64,000 bases of DNA from Spirochaetia bacterium (GCA_963675665.1 OY776510.1:3072001-3136000), one strand, 5' to 3'; positions 9,684 to 17,971 are shown, counted from the first letter of the stretch. Program-made: numbers and translations. The notes: generated from the sequence alone by a model not told the origin.

Positions 9684-11257
9684 TTACTCCTCGGTCCAGT
9701 CCAGGTAGTGAATATATGCTGCTCCGCCGCTGACGCCTCCTTCATCTTCGTAGGGCGCGCCGACAATAGCGTAATTGCCGTCTGCATTGACGGAAAAACC
9801 GAAATTGTCGCCTTCCTCAGCATCGAATGCAAAAATTTTCTCGCCTGAGTCCCAGGTGTTTGTTCCGGTTCGGTGAAACAGAACAACAGCTCCGGCGCTG
9901 GCTCCGGCGCTGTCGTTGCCCGGCGCGCTTATAAGAGCCCTGTCGCCCGCTATGGATACTTTTCTGCCGAAAAACTCTCCGGACTGGGCATTCGGCGCCG
10001 TAAGTTTATAACCGGCGTCCCAGGTTGTGGTATCTGTACGGCGAAAGATGTAGGCTGCGCCGGCATTTTCACCCATATCTTCATTACAATCTGCTCCGAC
10101 AACGGCATAGTCACCGTCTATGGCTACGTATGAGCCGAACTGGTTTTCGGCCCCGTCGATAACAGCCGAGGGCTCGGTAATCTTTATTCCCGAGTCCCAG
10201 GTATTGTTGTCGGTGTCGGTGCAATGAAAAAAATAGGCGGCACCTGCGCCTAAAAAGGGATACGGTCCTACAACGGCATAACTTCCGCTTATTGCAACTG
10301 AATTACCGAAAAGCTCATTTTCATAGGGTGCGGTCGACTTGATTTCTGTTCCGGCGTCCCAGATGTTTGAGGCCGTATCAGTACAATGAAAAATATAGGC
10401 GGAGCCTTCTCCAACATGGCTGTCATAATCACCTGTAGCCCCGATAATTGCATACTCCCCGTCGATATCAACCCTGTCGCCGAAATACTTGTTATTATTC
10501 GGATCAGAAGGAACAATTTTTGTGCCTGTGTCCCAGGTATTGCCGCCGGTACGTCTGAAGATATAGGCTGCGCCGCTGTCTGAACCTCCGCCGTTATCGT
10601 TGCGCCATGCGCCGACAATAATATAGTTTCCGTCGATTGCAACTGCAATTCCAAACTCGTCTTCTGCAGTCGGGTCAGTCGCAACAAGTCTTGTTGCTTC
10701 ACCCCAGCTGTTTGTTCCGGTTCGGTGAAAAACATAGGCGGCTCCCGCTTCGGTTGTAGCGCCGTAGTCTTCCTTGCTGGCTCCTACTACGGCGTAATCG
10801 CCGCTTACGTCGACGTAACGGCCGAAATTTGCGCCGTCAGCGGGGTTTTGCGACAGAAGTTTGATCATGTCGGGGTACCACTGGGCGTAGAGGGCAACAT
10901 CTTCAGTGCCCATGGAAAAGGTCTCACCAGGTTCATAGGAAATGCCGCTTCCGTTCGACGCTGTGTTCCATGATGAAAAAGTAAATCCGTCCCGGTCAAG
11001 GTTTCCCTCGTCAAGAACGGTGACTGAAGCATTTTCTTCGTAGGCGTTTGCGTCCAGGGGAACTGTGCCGCCGTCCGAATTATGACCCATATAGGTAACT
11101 GTAAAGGTCGGCGCTTCAGCGGTAAGCCCGAGATCGGAATTTATTTTCTGCTGGATTATATCTACAAATGAAGAGTTAAAGGTGCAGGCGGTAATAATAA
11201 CGGGTATTGCTGTCAGTATAAATACCTGAAAAACCAATTGTTTTTTTCTTTCTGCAT
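9684..11257 (-). CDS. Lipoprotein: conserved N-terminal tag + InlB B-repeat (Flg_new) domain + FG-GAP beta-propeller; 5' end frameshifted or TTG start at 11237
   Basis: Lipobox IITAC; GFTFSSWNTASNGSG...LYAQW; seven FG..VAIDGDYAVVGA...GAAYIF repeats; RBS-linked ATG at 11257 is 1 nt out of frame across an A7 run. Confidence 0.8.
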
Positions 11258-11273
11258 CTTTTCCCCTTTTAAA

Positions 11274-12764
11274 TCAGTCCCTGTAAAACCAGGATACGGA
11301 ATCTGCTCTGTTGCCGGTGACATAGGCATAGGCGCCGTCGGCGGTTACAGCTATCGAGTCCGCTTCGTCAATGTAATCACTGCTGACTTCACACATATAG
11401 GTCATTTCGCCGGTGCCTGCGTCAGTTGAAAGACAGGCCACATCGGTGTCTCCCGGCACGTATACTGTAGCGTCATCAGGCGATAAGGCAACGCAGGAGG
11501 CAAAATACATGCTGTCGTTTGAAACCCTGTGCATATACGAGAGCGCGCCGGTGCCGGTATTTCTTGAAAATGCTGCTGCGCCGCTACCGCCGGATGTTGT
11601 ATAGACATTATTCCCGTCCGCTGTAACAGCTGCAAACGTTATAGTATCAATATTTGAATTGGTTAATTCACCAACATATGAAAGGGCCCCGGTTCCGGAA
11701 TCTCTGTTAAACCAGGCAACTGTATCGGTATTAAATGCATAGACGTGCAGCCCGTCAGGCGAGACGGTAACGAATGAAAAGAATGTACTATATGTGTATT
11801 CTCCCGTGTAAGTAAGGGTCCCGGTATCAGTGTTCCTGGTAAACCAGGTTACCTTGTTGGCGCTTGAGCAAACCGCATAAACATGTTTGTTGTCCGGTGA
11901 AACCGCTACGGATCTTGTATTTACTATAGATTGATGCCAGAGTTTGTCTATATAGGTCAGGGCGCCGGTGTCGGTGTTCCTGGAAAACCAGGCTACCGAG
12001 CTTTTGTTAAACGAGGCAAGATAGATGTGCTTTCCGTCGGGGGCAATTGTAATCTGGTAGGGATAGCTCAGGTTATCGGAATCAACGTACCGGTCTGTAT
12101 AGGAAAGGGCCCCGGTATCAGCGTCTCTGGAAAACCAGGCAATCCCGGCGTCGCCTAACAGGCAGACATAAACATGCTTATTATCAGGCGAAAGGATAAT
12201 ATCGGTTGGAGAGTTTATTGTAGTTTCATCCGAATAGCTGCCGATATAAGAGAGCTCGCCGGGGTTATTTATTCCGGTAACCGAGAATATATAGTTCTTC
12301 TCATCAGTGTCGTTTGTTGTCACCATTACCGTTGCTGACTTGTTCCCGCTGGATAGGGGATCAAACCTTACTGTAAAGGTTGTTGAACCTGAAGGTGTAA
12401 CGGAGGCTGATGTTCCGTCGGTCAGATCAAAGTCAGCTGTATTCCCTGACGATAAAGATACGCTTTCGATAACAAGGTCGGCTGTTCCCGTGTTTTCGAT
12501 CGTAAAGGTTATTTCTCCGCTCGCGTAGCCCCCGTCGCCGTCGTTATGCATATGGCCGAAGCTGTATGTCCCCATGCCTGAAGCCAGTTCGGTTGAACCC
12601 TGCTTTACGGCAATTTCCGGTTCCGCAACCTCGTCGGTAATACCCAGATCGGTATTAATCTTGTCCTGGATCAAATCGACAAAGGACGACTCAAAGCTGC
12701 ATGACGCTGAGAAGGCTGTCAGGATTATAATTAATAATATTATTTTTCTATTTACATTTTTCAT
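11274..12764 (-). CDS. Lipoprotein: conserved N-terminal tag + choice-of-anchor D/ASH Ig-like domain + lactonase-like 7-bladed propeller
   Basis: Lipobox SASC; FTIENTGTADL...FTVRFDP...TNDTDE; repeats SPDNKHVY...WFSRDADTGALSY. Confidence 0.85.
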   Translation of the reverse strand: MKNVNRKIILLIIILTAFSASCSFESSFVDLIQDKINTDLGITDEVAEPEIAVKQGSTELASGMGTYSFGHMHNDGDGGYASGEITFTIENTGTADLVIESVSLSSGNTADFDLTDGTSASVTPSGSTTFTVRFDPLSSGNKSATVMVTTNDTDEKNYIFSVTGINNPGELSYIGSYSDETTINSPTDIILSPDNKHVYVCLLGDAGIAWFSRDADTGALSYTDRYVDSDNLSYPYQITIAPDGKHIYLASFNKSSVAWFSRNTDTGALTYIDKLWHQSIVNTRSVAVSPDNKHVYAVCSSANKVTWFTRNTDTGTLTYTGEYTYSTFFSFVTVSPDGLHVYAFNTDTVAWFNRDSGTGALSYVGELTNSNIDTITFAAVTADGNNVYTTSGGSGAAAFSRNTGTGALSYMHRVSNDSMYFASCVALSPDDATVYVPGDTDVACLSTDAGTGEMTYMCEVSSDYIDEADSIAVTADGAYAYVTGNRADSVSWFYRD

Positions 12765-12789
12765 TATGCCATATCCTGTTTTCTCCGGA

Positions 12790-14394
12790 TTACCTGAACC
12801 GATATACTATATTAAGATCATCGGAAGAACTCCCTGCGACGACTATCTTGCCGTCTGAATCCGTTGCTATTCCCGCGCCGGTAGCGGAGGTGCCGTCGTC
12901 GCAGACAAAAGCGCCGTCTGTACCGAAGGTCGGGTCGGAGGTCCCGTCGGGCAGGTACCTCCAGATTGCTATCCGCCCCGTATGTGATGCATCTACATCA
13001 ACCCTTCCTGTAACCAGGATGTTACCTGCGTTATCCAGACAGAGGCCGTAACCATAGTTAAACATGTAACCATAGCTGTACTCCAGGTATCCGTTTATGC
13101 CGAATGAGGTATCCAGTGAACCGTCATCATTCAGACGTAACAGAATCATATAGTAGTTACTGCCGTCATAGGCGTATCCTGTCACGAGGATTTTCCCGTT
13201 GGCATCAATGATGACGTCCTGACCGTAATTGCTGGTGTTTCCCAGTTCGGCACTGCCTAATATTACTGCGCCGGATGTTCCGAAGGTGCTGTCGGCTGTA
13301 CCGTCGTTTTTGTATCTCCAGACACCAAGGTTTCGCACTGCACCGGAATAAATATATCCGGTTACAACAATATTATTCTCTTCGTCAAGGGTAACCGCAG
13401 AACCCCAATCGTTTTCGCCGTGGTCTATTGTGACGGTGCCGTCGTCATCAAAGGATGTATTTTCTGAACCGTCGTCGTTGTATCGTTGGATTAAAATGTC
13501 GTCGTCGGAAACAGGCCTTGTATAACCGGCAACTACAATCTTGCCGCTGTCGTCGATAACAATGCCGTTTGCAACGTCTGAATCGTTGGTTACGTCACCT
13601 TCGTAGTTAACCATAGAAAATGATGAGTCTGTATTCCCGTTTTCCAGATAGCGCCAGATAGCCAGATCAACAAAACCTGCTCCATCTCCGGTTTTCCCTG
13701 CAATTAAAATATTATTGCTGCCGTCGGTAGTTATATCGCAACCTTCAACAGGATCAGTGCCTGAAGAGCTGATTATTCCGTCGGTATTGAAGGTCTGGTC
13801 AAGACTACCGTTGCTGTTATAACGGCAGGAGTACATGTCCATTTCTCCACCCATAAGTGTATCGGCCCAACCGGTTACAAGGATTCTGCCCTCAGTATCG
13901 AAATGGACAGCATTCCATCCTCCCTGGCTCAGGCTCTGGCCTTTTAATTCCTGGCGAACGTAGCCCAGCGTATTGAAGTCGGTATCGATTTCACCCTTCG
14001 GGAGCACCAGGAACTCGCATGTTGCTGAAAATTCCCCGTCGGAGGTTGTCGCGGTAATGGTTGCGCTTCCAGGTCCGGTGCCGGTCACAAGGCCCGTATC
14101 GCTGACTGCGGCTTTGTTCCCGTCGTTGCTGGACCAGTTGACGACCTGGTTTGTTGCATTGGCGGGTTCAAAAACTGCCGTCAGCTGCTGTGTATACCCC
14201 GAGGTGACTGTAATATCAGATTTGTCGAGAGTGATGCCGGTTGCAGCCACATTACCTGCAATCCCAAGGTCGGTATTAATCTTGTCCTGGATAAGATCGA
14301 CAAAGGACGACTCAAAGCTGCAGGAGAATATCAGAAATACAAACGGTATGACGGTAAATGAGATTGACGCTGATAAAAAAAGTTTTTTTCTCAT
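12790..14394 (-). CDS. Lipoprotein: conserved N-terminal tag + Big_2 Ig-like domain + delta-60 repeat propeller
   Basis: Lipobox IFSC; QLTAVFEPANATNQVVNWSS...ATITATTSDG; repeats DGKILVTG...RYNDDGSLDTSFG; ATG 14394 overlaps upstream TGA (ATGA). Confidence 0.85.
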   Translation of the reverse strand: MRKKLFLSASISFTVIPFVFLIFSCSFESSFVDLIQDKINTDLGIAGNVAATGITLDKSDITVTSGYTQQLTAVFEPANATNQVVNWSSNDGNKAAVSDTGLVTGTGPGSATITATTSDGEFSATCEFLVLPKGEIDTDFNTLGYVRQELKGQSLSQGGWNAVHFDTEGRILVTGWADTLMGGEMDMYSCRYNSNGSLDQTFNTDGIISSSGTDPVEGCDITTDGSNNILIAGKTGDGAGFVDLAIWRYLENGNTDSSFSMVNYEGDVTNDSDVANGIVIDDSGKIVVAGYTRPVSDDDILIQRYNDDGSENTSFDDDGTVTIDHGENDWGSAVTLDEENNIVVTGYIYSGAVRNLGVWRYKNDGTADSTFGTSGAVILGSAELGNTSNYGQDVIIDANGKILVTGYAYDGSNYYMILLRLNDDGSLDTSFGINGYLEYSYGYMFNYGYGLCLDNAGNILVTGRVDVDASHTGRIAIWRYLPDGTSDPTFGTDGAFVCDDGTSATGAGIATDSDGKIVVAGSSSDDLNIVYRFR

Positions 14395-16505
14395 TCTTCT
14401 TCTTCCCATAAAACCGTATCGCGGAGTCCTGCTGTATCGGCCGCCCTTACGGCTTCTTCGCCCCTCAGGTCAAGATACGCAAACTGTGATGCCGTTTCGG
14501 GGGAAAGAATTTTTAACCGTTCGTATGTTTCCCCTACCATGCCGTAGTTTTCAAGTTCATGATTGCAGCGTGAAATACCCAGCAGGGCGGTTTTATCTTC
14601 GCTGTTAACAGCAAGCGCCTGCTGATAATACCCGAGCGCCTGTTTAAAATCATCCTGGATGAAATAAATATTTCCAAGGTTATTTAATGACGGTCTGTAT
14701 TTTACAGTGCTGATGATTTTCTTAAAAAGATCGGCCGCGCGATCGTATAGACCGTAGCGGGCGTATAAAACAGCCAGTCTGTTCTGCAGCTTGTATTTTG
14801 TATTGCTTTGCTCGATCTTTGCCTGCAACTGGGCCGTCTGGGGGTAAATTTCCTGCTCAATGTGCCTGGAGAGGGTATTTTTAAAGGAATCTTGTACCTT
14901 ATCCTTGTCCGGAAGGTTGATAGCAACAGAGCTTTCACTGAAACCGACGGCCTGATAGGTCTTCCATGATTCCCTGGTAGGGTAGAGTACGGCCTGTTCC
15001 TTCGATGCGTTCTCGCGCCACTCCTTTGCCCCGGACTGCCAGGCATTTCTGAAATTGTCCTGGAACATCGTGATCTCAACCGGGACCCATGCCTTGTTTT
15101 CGCGGAAGATAAGTTCGTCCGACCGGCTGAAGACGTTCCGCGCCTCGTCAGGACCTGTTTTCAGCGCAAATGCGGTGTAAATATGACCCGGAATGGTTAT
15201 GACTGCAGTCTCAACGCCTACTGCCTCAAGCAGAGCTGTGTACAAGGCGGAAAGATCATCGCAGTCGCCGTTGGTGTATTCCAGGGTCTGCCTTGGAAAC
15301 TGGAGAAAATCAACAACTGTTGTCTCCTGTGATAATTCGGAAAAAGGAGTAGAAGGATCAATTTCATATTGTATCCCGTAGATTTGTATCGCGTTAAACA
15401 GCGCCATTGCCTTTTGTAAATTCTCATCCACAGCAGGATTCTCTACTTCATGCATCCAGCTCATAACGTTCTTTGAGAAACTCAGCACAATAGGGTCTTT
15501 TGCGGTAATAAATGATGATATCTTTCGATCGTCGTCCCAAACCAGGGCGTTACGGTTATGAAACTCAAGCACGGGGTTATACTCGGCCGAATAGAGTTGA
15601 CCGTCCAGAGTATACGAAACAGTGATCTTTGTGGAAGCCTTGGTGCCTTCGGTAATATCCATAAGATCTTCGGTAAAGAGTCCCAGAAGATTTATTACAG
15701 TTTCTTCTCTCGGTTCCAGGTTAAAGCTCGCGCCGCTTTCCATCGGGTTGTCCATATAGCGTTCAACATAGAATTTTATCTTTATGTCCTTTACCGGCTT
15801 TTTCTCATGATTAACAACCCTTGCAGTTCCTACAGGATTATTATCGTAGTATTTGTAGAGGACCGGAAAAAGCTGGTTGAGAGTAATATCCTGAAGGCCT
15901 ATGCCCCTTCCGTCTTCAAGGGTCTGCGGCTGCATTCCGCCGGGCATGAATGATGTGCCGGAAGATGATTTTACGGGAACATCCATCTTCAGCAACAGGC
16001 TGAAATTGATTCCATTATAAAGATTTTTCATGAAATCATATGAAGTGCCGATTCCGAGAGAAAACGGTCCGGCAAGTTTAAACGTTCCTGCCGCGCTGGT
16101 TTTTATATAAAAGTCTCCGCCGTTCCCGTCGCCTGCGTCCCAGCCGACAGGGTTCCAGGAATAATAACCGAAATTACCGAAAATATTCAAACCGAAGCGA
16201 TTGCCAAGAGGAAAGTTGATAACAGGTCCGGCCCCGAAGCCGAGCGTTCTGATTGAATCCGCCGTCTCAAGCGGAAGAACGGTGAAGTCTCCGCCTATAC
16301 CCAGGCCGAAATATTTTAAGAATGAGGGAATAAAAAAGGCTTCAACTTCAGCGCCGGCCCCCATTTTAAATAATGCGGTACTGCTGGCACCGAGAGGGAC
16401 AGCTCCGTGGGGAACAACATTAATCGACAAAATATTTTCCTGCTGACTGAAAACCACGGGGGCTACAAGTATCAAAACAAACAATATTGCTATAAACTTT
16501 TTCAT
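14391..16505 (-). CDS. Outer-membrane beta-barrel + Ig-like + transglutaminase-like (Cys/His/acid) + TPR protein
   Basis: Signal peptide; ~160 aa of amphipathic Gly/aromatic strands; GDCDDLS, PGHIY, WVPVEIT; TPR (SLNNLGNIYFIQDDFKQALGYYQQAL); start ATG 16505 behind aggag. Confidence 0.75.
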   Translation of the reverse strand: MKKFIAILFVLILVAPVVFSQQENILSINVVPHGAVPLGASSTALFKMGAGAEVEAFFIPSFLKYFGLGIGGDFTVLPLETADSIRTLGFGAGPVINFPLGNRFGLNIFGNFGYYSWNPVGWDAGDGNGGDFYIKTSAAGTFKLAGPFSLGIGTSYDFMKNLYNGINFSLLLKMDVPVKSSSGTSFMPGGMQPQTLEDGRGIGLQDITLNQLFPVLYKYYDNNPVGTARVVNHEKKPVKDIKIKFYVERYMDNPMESGASFNLEPREETVINLLGLFTEDLMDITEGTKASTKITVSYTLDGQLYSAEYNPVLEFHNRNALVWDDDRKISSFITAKDPIVLSFSKNVMSWMHEVENPAVDENLQKAMALFNAIQIYGIQYEIDPSTPFSELSQETTVVDFLQFPRQTLEYTNGDCDDLSALYTALLEAVGVETAVITIPGHIYTAFALKTGPDEARNVFSRSDELIFRENKAWVPVEITMFQDNFRNAWQSGAKEWRENASKEQAVLYPTRESWKTYQAVGFSESSVAINLPDKDKVQDSFKNTLSRHIEQEIYPQTAQLQAKIEQSNTKYKLQNRLAVLYARYGLYDRAADLFKKIISTVKYRPSLNNLGNIYFIQDDFKQALGYYQQALAVNSEDKTALLGISRCNHELENYGMVGETYERLKILSPETASQFAYLDLRGEEAVRAADTAGLRDTVLWEEEE

Positions 16506-16546
16506 TATTTCTCTCCTAATGCAGCGTGAAAATAAGCTTTGCTGAT

Positions 16547-16555
16547 ATTGTAACA
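16547..16555 (-). promoter_or_regulatory. Putative extended -10 promoter of the transglutaminase/lipoprotein operon
   Basis: TGtTACAAT on minus strand about 40 nt upstream of the start; small palindrome ggcat-acttc-atgcc at 16564-16578. Confidence 0.35.
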
Positions 16556-16663
16556 TCTATTTCGGCATACTTCATGCCATATTTATATAAAGAGTAATAT
16601 TTTATCTAAAGAGATTTACATTTGTATAGGTAAATTAAATTAAAGCCCTGCAGATAACGGGGC

Positions 16664-17971
16664 TTATCCCTTAAGCTCTTTTATTTTATTAACAGCCTCT
16701 TCAAGAGAAATCATATCATAGTTTTCCCTGGCGTTGAGATCTTTCAGATTGATCTTGCCGGCTTGGTATTCTTCTTCGCCGCAGATTACTGCAAAAGGAA
16801 TGTTCTTGCGTTCTGCAAAATTAAACTGGTTTTTCATTTTCCTGTTTTCAAGGAAAATTTCACAGTTCAGGCCGGCTTCGCGAAGTTTGGATGCAAGGCT
16901 GAAATAGTGTCCCTTCAGATTGTCGTCCATGTTGATGACAAGCACATCGGTAAGGCTCTTTCTTGGGGAAGATACGCCGAGCTCTTCAAGGGCCGCCATA
17001 AGACGGTCGAGACCGATTGAAGATCCTACCCCCGGCATTTCGGTTTTTGAATAGATGGACGCCAGATTGTTATATCGTCCGCCCGAGCAGACTGAGCCGA
17101 TGCCCGGCAGGGCATCAAGGAAGGTTTCGTATACTATGCCGGTGTAATAATCAAGGCCGCGTGTTATTGAGGGGTTGAGCACGAACAGTTCATCAATTCC
17201 GCATTCAACCATCATTGAACGTACAACTCTTAAACGTTCGCTGCCTGCCGACGAACCGCCGGAAAGGGATTCTATACGGTCGAGAATTTCATCAAAGCCG
17301 CCTTCGGCGCTGATATATTCAAGAATCCTGCCGGCCTTTTCCGGGTCGGAGATTTCTTCCAGCATTTCGCGGACATTGTCTTCTCCGACCTTTCCCAGCT
17401 TGTCTACAATTCTCAAAACCTCCGCCGAGTTGTCGGAAATGCCGAGGTGATCGAGAAAAGTGTTGAATATGCCGCGGTGCGACAGGTGGATATGGATATC
17501 GGGCACGCCCATTGCGGCCATTGATGCGTGCATTATCGAAAGTATTTCAAAATCGGCTTCAGGGCTGTCCACGCCGACAATGTCAAAATCGCACTGGGTA
17601 AACTCGCGGTATCTTCCGCGCTGGGTGTTTTCGCCGCGCCAGACCTTTGAAATATGGTAGCGCTTGAAAGGCAGGTAGAGTTCGTTTATATGGGCTGCCA
17701 TGAACCTGGCGAAAGGAACGGTAAGATCAAAACGCATTGCAACATCGCGTCCTCCGTGGTCTTCAAAACGGTAAATCTGTTTGTCTGTTTCGCCGCTGCC
17801 TTTTCCGAGCAGAACATCAGTGTATTCGAGAACAGGCGTGTCTATCGGGACCATTCCGAACGATTTAAAGGTCTGCTCAAGAACAGACTGGATATCTTTG
17901 CGGGAGATCTCGGTTTCGGGCAGAAAATCCCTGAATCCCTTTAAAACTTTCGGTTGTACAAGCTCAGCCAT
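16664..17971 (-). CDS. hisS: Histidine--tRNA ligase
   Basis: KGFRDFLP, RFDLTVPFAR, WRGENTQRGRYREFTQCDFD, RGLDYYTG, GGRY. Confidence 0.97.
   Translation of the reverse strand: MAELVQPKVLKGFRDFLPETEISRKDIQSVLEQTFKSFGMVPIDTPVLEYTDVLLGKGSGETDKQIYRFEDHGGRDVAMRFDLTVPFARFMAAHINELYLPFKRYHISKVWRGENTQRGRYREFTQCDFDIVGVDSPEADFEILSIMHASMAAMGVPDIHIHLSHRGIFNTFLDHLGISDNSAEVLRIVDKLGKVGEDNVREMLEEISDPEKAGRILEYISAEGGFDEILDRIESLSGGSSAGSERLRVVRSMMVECGIDELFVLNPSITRGLDYYTGIVYETFLDALPGIGSVCSGGRYNNLASIYSKTEMPGVGSSIGLDRLMAALEELGVSSPRKSLTDVLVINMDDNLKGHYFSLASKLREAGLNCEIFLENRKMKNQFNFAERKNIPFAVICGEEEYQAGKINLKDLNARENYDMISLEEAVNKIKELKG

Follow-up and report, generated by a model that had tools for sequence, protein, structure and literature searches.

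Slam proteins of Neisseria and its relatives have an N-terminal tetratricopeptide repeat (TPR) domain and a C-terminal 14-stranded DUF560 barrel, and the signal in their cargo lies in a C-terminal barrel domain; the gene-neighbourhood logic of a barrel and TPR protein encoded beside its cargo lipoproteins is known for this system. In Bacteroidota, the lipoprotein export signal (LES) is an acidic signal of a few residues right after the lipidated cysteine, which marks a subset of lipoproteins and has no dedicated adjacent reader gene. Recognition by a helix is described for the periplasmic transglutaminase-fold cysteine enzymes LapG and DvhG. According to PMC13090378 these enzymes dock a substrate 'targeting helix' through hydrophobic residues at i/i+4 and then cleave a downstream motif nearby, and DvhG is tethered to the membrane through a long disordered linker; calcium-binding residues adjacent to the LapG active site are given in PMC13090378 and PMC4359373. 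For spirochaetes, a preprint proposes a Borrelia LptD homologue as a lipoprotein flipping route (bioRxiv 10.1101/2022.12.21.521298). Here we describe a four-gene operon within a 64,000-nucleotide stretch of Spirochaetia bacterium DNA (GCA_963675665.1, OY776510.1:3072001-3136000), the window, in which a gene for a barrel, transglutaminase-like and TPR protein (gene 1) is followed by three genes for lipoproteins (genes 2-4) that share one N-terminal element, the tag.

The window operon is an expanded copy of a widespread and conserved spirochaetal two-part envelope cassette. As to its function, we see about an even chance that the tag is a targeting helix read by the cassette's own gene 1 protein beneath the outer membrane, followed by LapG-like cleavage near the lipid anchor. 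Like LapG and DvhG, gene 1 encodes a transglutaminase-fold cysteine enzyme, presumably periplasmic, with adhesin-like partners that would be recognised at their N-termini. The systems belong to different phyla, and they differ in that gene 1 has a predicted outer-membrane barrel as anchor whereas DvhG has an inner-membrane helix, that the immunoglobulin (Ig)-like and TPR domains are extra in gene 1, and that the gene 1 partners are lipoproteins tagged right after the lipidated cysteine, whereas LapA and DvhA are type I secretion system (T1SS) adhesins with a retention module. No LapD/DvhD-type cyclic di-GMP receptor was found beside the window operon. The tag resembles LES in being short, acidic, placed directly after the lipidated cysteine and carried by a subset of lipoproteins, but it is an amphipathic helix of about 15-20 residues, it has paralogue-specific variants, and it is encoded beside its presumed reader. 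Literature searches on transglutaminase-like, TPR, lipoprotein and outer-membrane modules of spirochaetes found no paper describing the gene 1 architecture or the pairing, in agreement with the first-pass annotation of this DNA, which knew of no described system of such a layout.

The window operon and its shared tag

The minus strand of the window holds four consecutive open reading frames (ORFs) between 9684 and 16556, at 14391-16556, 12790-14409, 11274-12764 and 9684-11237. The first is open from 16556, and its start is most likely the MKKF at 16505, giving a protein of 704 residues. The operon and its tags are as follows:

14391..16505, minus strand: gene 1, encoding a signal peptide, 8-stranded barrel, linker, Ig sandwich, transglutaminase-fold core, long helix, TPR domain and the C-terminus VLWEEEE
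12790..14409, minus strand: gene 2, which begins inside the end of gene 1 and encodes a 539-residue lipoprotein with a Big_2 stalk and a delta-60/DUF5122 propeller after the tag
14263..14322, minus strand: tag of gene 2, CSFESSFVDLIQDKINTDLG, starting at the lipobox Cys30
11274..12764, minus strand: gene 3, a 496-residue lipoprotein with tag, choice-of-anchor D/HYDIN-type Ig stalk and lactonase-type propeller
12642..12701, minus strand: tag of gene 3, with the same protein sequence as in gene 2
9684..11237, minus strand: gene 4, a 517-residue lipoprotein with a TTG start, tag, InlB B-repeat (Flg_new/List_Bact_rpt) stalk and seven FG-GAP_2 repeats
11127..11186, minus strand: tag of gene 4, CTFNSSFVDIIQQKINSDLG, starting at the lipobox cysteine

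The longest ORFs of genes 1 and 2 overlap by 19 nt, with the first ATG of gene 2 inside gene 1, and the second in-frame ATG of gene 2 forms an ATGA overlap with the gene 1 stop codon; gaps of 25 nt and 36 nt separate genes 2 and 3 and genes 3 and 4, respectively. A minus-strand operon of four genes with the first two coupled, as originally proposed, is thus confirmed. Pfam, NCBIfam and an AlphaFold2 model likewise confirm the domain calls made for all four proteins, and the GDCDD, PGHI and WVPVEIT motifs are present in gene 1. The hydrophobic stretches at the starts of genes 2-4 end in FS-C, AS-C and TA-C, which are lipoboxes with their cysteine as judged by sequence pattern.

From the lipobox cysteine onward, the three lipoproteins share 20 residues that conform to C[ST]F[EN]SSFVD[LI]IQ[DQ]KIN[TS]DLG, and both the signal peptides before this tag and the regions after it are unalignable, as are the stalks. 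The tag that the first-pass annotation had seen on three unrelated lipoproteins is therefore real. At the DNA level, only synonymous differences, at 3 of 54 bases, separate the tags of genes 2 and 3, which suggests that they have recently been homogenised. Between genes 4 and 2 there are seven synonymous and six conservative replacement codons, a pattern that points to old divergence under constraint at the protein level. Because the codon changes between these two tags are synonymous or conservative and the flanks cannot be aligned, the tag is old and has been kept by selection on the protein. When the entire 5.15 Mb genome was searched in six frames with mismatches allowed, 36 matches came up, and the tag is present in genes 2-4 only; the remaining 33, which have up to three mismatches, are unrelated and due to chance.

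Across the family, the partner lipoproteins start with the cysteine, a helix N-cap and an acidic amphipathic helix, with the broad consensus C-x-N-P-L-L-D-x-I-E-x-D-V-E, and in the clade of the window the tag consensus is C-x-[IFL]-[DEN]-S-x-[FY]-x-x-x-[ILV]-x-x-[KQ]-I-x-x-D. The partners reach a maximal helical hydrophobic moment of 1.71, compared with 1.19 for other lipobox ORFs at the same loci (one-sided Mann-Whitney p = 5.7e-7, a value overstated since the sequences are related), in line with the amphipathic helix expected from the first reading of the sequence. Residues 2-20 of the partners are 20% acidic and 9% basic, and this acidic composition favours docking to a protein and disfavours membrane binding.

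Several further features of the operon were observed. Its G+C content (9684-16505) is 48.4%, higher than that of the window (41.3%) and that of the genome (43.3%). A promoter and terminator scan found no site that convincingly delimits the operon, with 19 promoter-like sites where 12.8 were expected and 17 terminator-like sites where 9.5 were expected. The junction of genes 1 and 2 is dual-coding (14388-14412, minus strand): gene 1 ends TGG GAA GAA GAA GAA TGA (W-E-E-E-E-stop), and one base earlier the same DNA reads ATG GGA AGA AGA AGA ATG (M-G-R-R-R-M), a positively charged start for a lipoprotein signal peptide. MGRR or MGGG starts are common among homologous partners, with overlaps of 16, 13 or 19 nt. 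The VLWEEEE C-terminus of gene 1 is conserved, and its invariant tryptophan and acidic tail may be constrained by this dual-coding overlap, or by TPR binding as with EEVD tails.

The signal peptide of gene 4, when read from the TTG, has an n-region without lysine or arginine, and a homopolymeric tract lies close by:

11241..11247, minus strand: A7 tract just upstream of the gene 4 TTG, separating the TTG from an out-of-frame ATG (region 11235-11257)

With A8 in place of A7, the upstream ATG would be in frame and would give a canonical signal peptide, MQKEKKQLVFQ... The extra A is seen in a contig from a related organism (X4, depth 3.3), and A7 is kept in two samples of the same organism (X1 and X3). 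This could be a frameshifted start, variation of a slippage-prone tract, or an assembly error in the relative. The X4 contig, whose depth is 3.3-4.1, so that single differences are possible errors, has the same four-gene arrangement (compared over window 9684-16684). It is about 96% identical to the window in gene 1 (94 differences in 2387 nt), about 89% in genes 4 and 3 (278 in 2552) and 81-92% in gene 2, where two segments of about 130 nt each are replaced. Since the enzyme gene is about 96% identical and the lipoprotein genes 81-92%, the cargo diverges faster than the enzyme, its presumed reader.

Pairing of gene 1 homologues with tagged lipoproteins

When 41 genomes of the class were sampled, 22 of them, the source genome included, had strong gene 1 matches (E < 1e-40), and by their record titles the homologues come from Spirochaetales and Spirochaetaceae metagenome-assembled genomes and from Marispirochaeta, Sediminispirochaeta, Spirochaeta and Oceanispirochaeta. 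They are annotated at source as 'hypothetical', 'TPR repeat protein' or 'transglutaminase-like'. A search with the Ig and transglutaminase domains alone gave 2517 cluster representatives (50% identity) at E <= 1e-3 and 1235 at E <= 1e-30.

We surveyed 79 loci from the genome collection, which after a motif filter gave 79 homologues (one locus gave none and one gave two), and the pairing count was restricted to the 67 homologues with at least 400 nt of downstream DNA. A lipobox ORF lies downstream on the same strand within 300 nt in 45 of the 67, or 48 when upstream neighbours are counted as well, compared with 39 of 448 other ORFs (8.7%) scored by the same crude detector. The association of the enzyme with a lipoprotein is thus family-wide. 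The enzyme and lipoprotein genes overlap at 36 of 46 junctions, by 4 to 40 nt, most often by 16 nt (12 cases), 13 nt (11) or 19 nt (6). Pfam families were matched in 30 of 36 complete partners and are very diverse; the bodies include Big_2, Big_5, Flg_new, PKD, cadherin-like, HYDIN-type Ig, FG-GAP, RCC1, BNR, beta-helix, FGE-sulfatase, Lcl_C and LVIVD. Among 17 homologous operons with at least two genes downstream of gene 1, a second lipoprotein with a shared tag occurs only in locus L038, and we therefore regard the three-cargo operon of the window as an expansion.

The tag itself is also tied to gene 1, as the first-pass annotation had supposed. When 301 genomes of the class were scanned with a degenerate DNA pattern for the narrow tag, 10 matches appeared, in 7 genomes, and the reversed control gave none. 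All 10 lie in gene 1 operons, nine with a gene 1 homologue ending just upstream and the tenth being gene 3 of the window, although five of the seven foreign matches are in records that already belonged to the previously gathered set of gene 1 homologues. In a second approach, a position-specific scoring matrix built from 51 foreign tags was used to rank 690 crude lipobox candidates of the source genome. The candidates ranked 1, 2, 3, 6, 7 and 8 each have a gene 1 paralogue within 2 kb, whereas in the full set of 690 no more than 19 have one within 6 kb.

The source genome contains seven copies of the gene 1 family, gene 1 itself and six paralogues, and a large lipoprotein adjoins nearly every paralogue, often with overlapping junctions. 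Four of the seven copies align from the barrel onward and three align only from residue ~190; the N-terminal 222 residues of these three have no Pfam match. The four barrel-type cassettes have four distinguishable tags (CSFESSFVDLIQ..., CTIESEYVTALK..., CDNPLDRIIKED... and CSDIALRTYIER...), while the lipoproteins of one operon have a common tag, three of them in the window operon and two in L038. Because each paralogous cassette has its own tag variant, tag and enzyme pairs are probably specific to each cassette.

The three remaining paralogues form a second subfamily (genome 308124-310355, 3766162-3768381 and 4158304-4160496) with a different N-terminal region of about 200 residues. Their neighbours are very large lipoproteins of 916-1753 residues with LVIVD/Big_13 bodies that start C-P-x-P-[LIM]...L..L.D...P.I.I. 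Further lipoproteins of the C-P-x-P-[LIM] type are listed at genome 1099407, 3020584, 4571892 and 196797, several of them far from any paralogue. One gene 1 paralogue is flanked by two 370-residue ORFs that have the same N-terminal 70 residues (MKMSIGVDLHKTQF...), at genome 3765016-3766128 (plus strand) and 3773915-3775027 (minus strand). These are probably insertion sequence copies, and one sits between the paralogue and its upstream lipoprotein.

Gene 1 anatomy and catalytic core

An AlphaFold2 model of gene 1, built on our alignment of 54 homologues, has a mean predicted local distance difference test score (pLDDT) of 89.1. With the sequence, it resolves the following parts:

16443..16505, minus strand: type I signal peptide MKKFIAILFVLILVAPVVFSQ, called from the sequence, a helix at residues 2-18 in the model, with a probable cleavage site and no lipobox
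15972..16436, minus strand: residues 24-178, an antiparallel beta-barrel of 8 strands, OmpA/OmpX/NspA/Ail-like (AlphaFold2 model, Foldseek)
15540..15902, minus strand: residues 202-322, an Ig-like beta-sandwich (models, structural matches)
14958..15530, minus strand: residues 326-516, the transglutaminase/papain-like core (invariant residues, fold matches)
15261-15263, 15183-15185 and 15075-15077, minus strand: the catalytic residues Cys415, His441 and Glu477, invariant in the alignment
14430..14798, minus strand: residues 570-692, the TPR domain (Pfam, model, Foldseek, PDB profile)

A low-confidence, disordered linker of 18 residues (181-198) joins the barrel to the Ig-like domain, and a long helix (residues 534-566) precedes the TPR domain. 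In the predicted model, eight antiparallel strands, mostly with pLDDT >90, close into a barrel after the signal peptide, as in OmpA/OmpX-type barrels. Foldseek matches this region to the OmpA, NspA, Ail and OmpX transmembrane domains at E 2e-5 to 9e-5, among them 1bxw (E 2.3e-5, TM to target 0.62), 1p4t (E 3.3e-5, 0.68), 1qj9 (E 9.1e-5, 0.67), 1qjp and 3qra, and the Pfam family OMP_b-brl is matched by 11 of 57 members of the gene 1 family. The C-terminal part matches consensus TPR proteins in Foldseek, and TPR proteins are the sole matches of the whole-family profile among PDB sequences. No Pfam or NCBIfam model spans the whole protein, and no OmpA-like C-terminal peptidoglycan-binding domain was found among its Pfam and NCBIfam hits. 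In the usual topology of outer-membrane proteins, both ends of an even-stranded OmpA-like barrel face the periplasm. By this topology the Ig, transglutaminase and TPR domains of gene 1 would lie in the periplasm, tethered under the outer membrane.

The motifs G-D-C415-D-D, P-G-H441-I and W-x-P-x-E477-x-T are invariant across 54 homologues, and they remain so in 57 sequences that include the three divergent paralogues of the same genome. The same holds for the acidic residues D414, D416 and D417 beside Cys415; we presume that acidic residues flank the LapG cysteine as well, where the published accounts say only 'active site-adjacent'. Since the Cys-His-Glu residues and their acidic flanks are invariant in all 57 sequences, distant paralogues included, catalysis by gene 1 appears to be under selection. 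Both the barrel and the triad that the initial annotation needed are accordingly found, the first in the model and the second in the alignment.

By sequence, Transglut_core (PF01841) is the only non-TPR Pfam match of gene 1 at E <= 0.01, and across the family 44 of 57 members match it at this threshold (best E 5.9e-5); a search of the catalytic core against solved chains gave no matches at E <= 10. Whole-model Foldseek results were dominated by barrel and TPR matches, although the animal TG2/TG3-type structure 1l9m is among them, and for this reason the Ig plus core part was folded alone (pLDDT 92.3). With this model Foldseek finds TG2, TG3, PNGase and LapG, with E values from 6e-5 to 3e-3 (9bc4_A, E 5.9e-5; 4u65_E, E 2.7e-3). 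In VIA-align the best match of the core is 3kd4_B (Z 11.1, rmsd 2.7, 130 aligned), followed by PNGase 2f4o (Z 9.1), 3isr_A (Z 9.0, rmsd 3.2, 126 aligned), TglA 9crn (Z 8.9) and LapG 4fgo (Z 8.9, rmsd 3.6, 140 aligned), and the Ig sandwich has many matches of Z 9-11 over residues 1-120 of the Ig plus core model. The transglutaminase-like fold of the core is thus confirmed on the predicted model by both methods. Its closest structural group consists of uncharacterised 'putative proteases', 3kd4 from Parabacteroides distasonis and 3isr from Cytophaga hutchinsonii, which differ from gene 1 in having no barrel, TPR domain or lipoprotein partner.

The sole non-TPR NCBIfam match of gene 1 is NF058533, 'anti-phage protein ProA' (E 1.1e-12, 46 bits against a cut-off of 1500), which pairs residues 227-501 (window about 15003-15827) with the N-terminal positions 14-294 of a 1903-position model. 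A literature search for that name found no paper. No defence system was recognised by PADLOC either, its hits being two marginal ones for gene 1 (E ~6e-3) and none for genes 2-4.

Possible roles of the tag and its presumed reader

In the reading that we prefer, gene 1 would be held in the outer membrane by its OmpA-like 8-stranded barrel, and the flexible linker would hang the Ig domain, the Cys-His-Glu enzyme and the TPR domain into the periplasm. The cargo would be a single lipoprotein or several, whose bodies are interchangeable and consist of Ig-like stalks bearing propellers, beta-helices or FGE-sulfatase domains, in which the first ~20 mature residues, right after the lipidated cysteine, form the acidic amphipathic helix. 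This helix would dock on the cognate gene 1 protein at the inner face of the outer membrane, and the catalytic cysteine would then act covalently on the lipoprotein near its lipid anchor. The favoured chemistry is proteolysis behind the helix, which would free the body from the anchor as LapG and DvhG do after docking of their targeting helix. With the tag beside the lipid anchor and gene 1 tethered under the outer membrane, the two would be brought together geometrically, and the invariant triad argues for catalysis; among the chemistries considered, LapG-like cleavage therefore seems to us the most plausible. The first-pass annotation had left open whether gene 1 exports, cross-links or releases its lipoproteins. 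Release or processing probably fits best of the three, and export and cross-linking are unlikely for the reasons given below.

Direct binding of the tag by gene 1 is likewise suggested by complex prediction. With residues 22-704 of gene 1 (54-row alignment) and the first 46 mature residues of the cargo (11-row alignment) as inputs, the result was 'weak support', with a score of 0.50 (runs 0.50, 0.39 and 0.53), while the best of three controls scored 0.00. At least 96% of contacts are common to the runs, and pLDDT is 53 or higher for the partner. The mark used is reached by 116 of 157 solved complexes and by 2 of 215 mismatched pairs, counts that are approximate because our own alignments were used, and scores of 0.60 or under comprise only 18 of the 157 solved complexes and both of the passing mismatches. 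The modelling of gene 1 with its tag peptide, as first proposed, thus gives weak support for contact.

Several observations weigh against docking followed by cleavage. The 46 partner N-termini listed have no conserved [T/A/P]AAG-like motif, the type of site found in LapG and DvhG substrates, after the helix. The third residue of the triad is an invariant Glu where the bacterial transglutaminase-like cysteine proteinases (BTLCP), to which LapG and DvhG belong, have Cys-His-Asp, and the window protein scores below the Transglut_core cut-off (19.8-21.1 against 23 bits). It also has no match to BTLCP (PF06035) at E <= 0.01, nor is that family among the 25 commonest of the 31 Pfam families matched by its 57 relatives. 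Translational coupling suggests near-equal amounts of the two proteins, which fits a stable complex better than a turnover enzyme. The predicted periplasmic placement of the gene 1 domains depends on the usual topology of outer-membrane proteins. By the crude detector, 22 of the 67 homologues have no downstream lipobox ORF, and a few tag-like lipoproteins, of the CP-x-P-L type, have no paralogue anywhere near them, such as those at genome 1099407, 4571892 and 3020584, so that adjacency to a paralogue is not obligatory. Finally, the complex prediction is weak and returned no interface that would place the tag in the TPR groove, on the Ig domain or at the active site. An 'AG' behind the helix, seen in several partners (IAGN, LAGS, QAGD), was also considered as a cleavage motif and was rejected as not general.

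Some of these points would be expected if the TPR and Ig scaffold of gene 1 merely held the helix in a lasting 1:1 complex, with the enzyme site acting elsewhere, for example on peptidoglycan stem peptides or on another envelope protein, or being structural. Overlap of most gene pairs suggests coupled stoichiometric synthesis, no scissile motif is conserved behind the helix, TPR domains are typical receptors of peptides or helices, and OmpA-type barrels commonly bear periplasmic tethering domains. We nevertheless consider stable docking alone unlikely, as the Cys-His-Glu residues and their acidic flanks are invariant even in distant paralogues, which speaks for selection on catalysis, nothing ties the enzyme to peptidoglycan, and in the window operon three lipoproteins are encoded for a single gene 1.

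It is also conceivable, though less likely still, that the helix is a general sorting or membrane-surface element that gene 1 does not read, adjacency reflecting some other shared function or operon descent. The tag-like lipoproteins located away from any paralogue in the source genome would agree with this, and co-inheritance of the cassette alone would yield matching clades of tag and enzyme. Set against it, tags differ between paralogous cassettes and yet are common to unrelated bodies of one operon, all ten narrow-tag matches fall in gene 1 operons, the helix is acidic and so unlike membrane-binding helices, and the complex prediction, at 0.50 against 0.00, gives contact weak support.

The first-pass annotation had placed weight on an invariant Gln and Lys in the tag as substrates of a true transglutaminase, which would join the lipoproteins by an isopeptide bond to a protein or to the wall in a sortase-like manner. 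Both residues are present in all three tags of the window operon, and the Ig-sandwich and core arrangement does resemble that of animal TG2 and TG3 (9bc4_A, 1l9m). Beyond the operon the invariance is lost: among 11 orthologous tags, position 12 is Q, K, N, E or R and position 14 is K or Q, the only invariant positions being C1, S5, I15 and D18, and the 51 tags of the wider family have no conserved Gln or Lys. For this reason, and since bacterial putative proteases, PNGase and LapG match the structure equally well or better, cross-linking through the tag is very improbable. Slam-like export, in which gene 1 would carry the tagged lipoproteins over the outer membrane to the cell surface, is the least probable of all: the likeness lies in an outer-membrane barrel and TPR protein encoded beside variable, adhesin-like cargo lipoproteins, but the OmpA/OmpX-like barrel of gene 1 has 8 strands and no room for a polypeptide, the domain order is the reverse of that of Slam, with the barrel N-terminal, the TPRs C-terminal (570-692) and a catalytic domain added, no DUF560 occurs among the Pfam hits at E <= 0.01, and the shared element of the cargo is N-terminal.

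Returning to a tag that is read and processed by gene 1, a wider proposal can be put forward tentatively, as something possible rather than expected: that free-living spirochaetes hold orthogonal tag and reader pairs, in which each enzyme would covalently process its own lipoproteins, cutting them for regulated release or passing them to an acceptor. The three unrelated bodies that carry the tag in the window operon suggest that new cargo would then be recruited simply by gaining a tag cassette of about 60 nt.

The sorting, exposure and shedding of spirochaete lipoproteins are only partly understood, and this large uncharacterised family offers a handle on them, with a lipid-proximal tag, an invariant catalytic cysteine and natural tag variants that are expected to be mutually specific. 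A transglutaminase-fold periplasmic enzyme with a helix-tagged envelope substrate is a kind of system already known, and there is a real chance that the cassette represents a new lipoprotein-processing pathway. If docking is all that takes place, gene 1 and its homologues would still be outer-membrane receptors for lipoproteins of a new class. Cleavage or transfer of the tagged lipoproteins by the enzyme, if it occurs, would constitute a new post-Lol step in lipoprotein biogenesis, would extend the 'targeting helix' logic of LapG from T1SS adhesins to lipoproteins, and would provide a portable tag and reader pair for envelope engineering. Orthogonal pairs of this kind, if they are borne out, would amount to a modular, dedicated lipoprotein-processing pathway of diderms that has no described counterpart.

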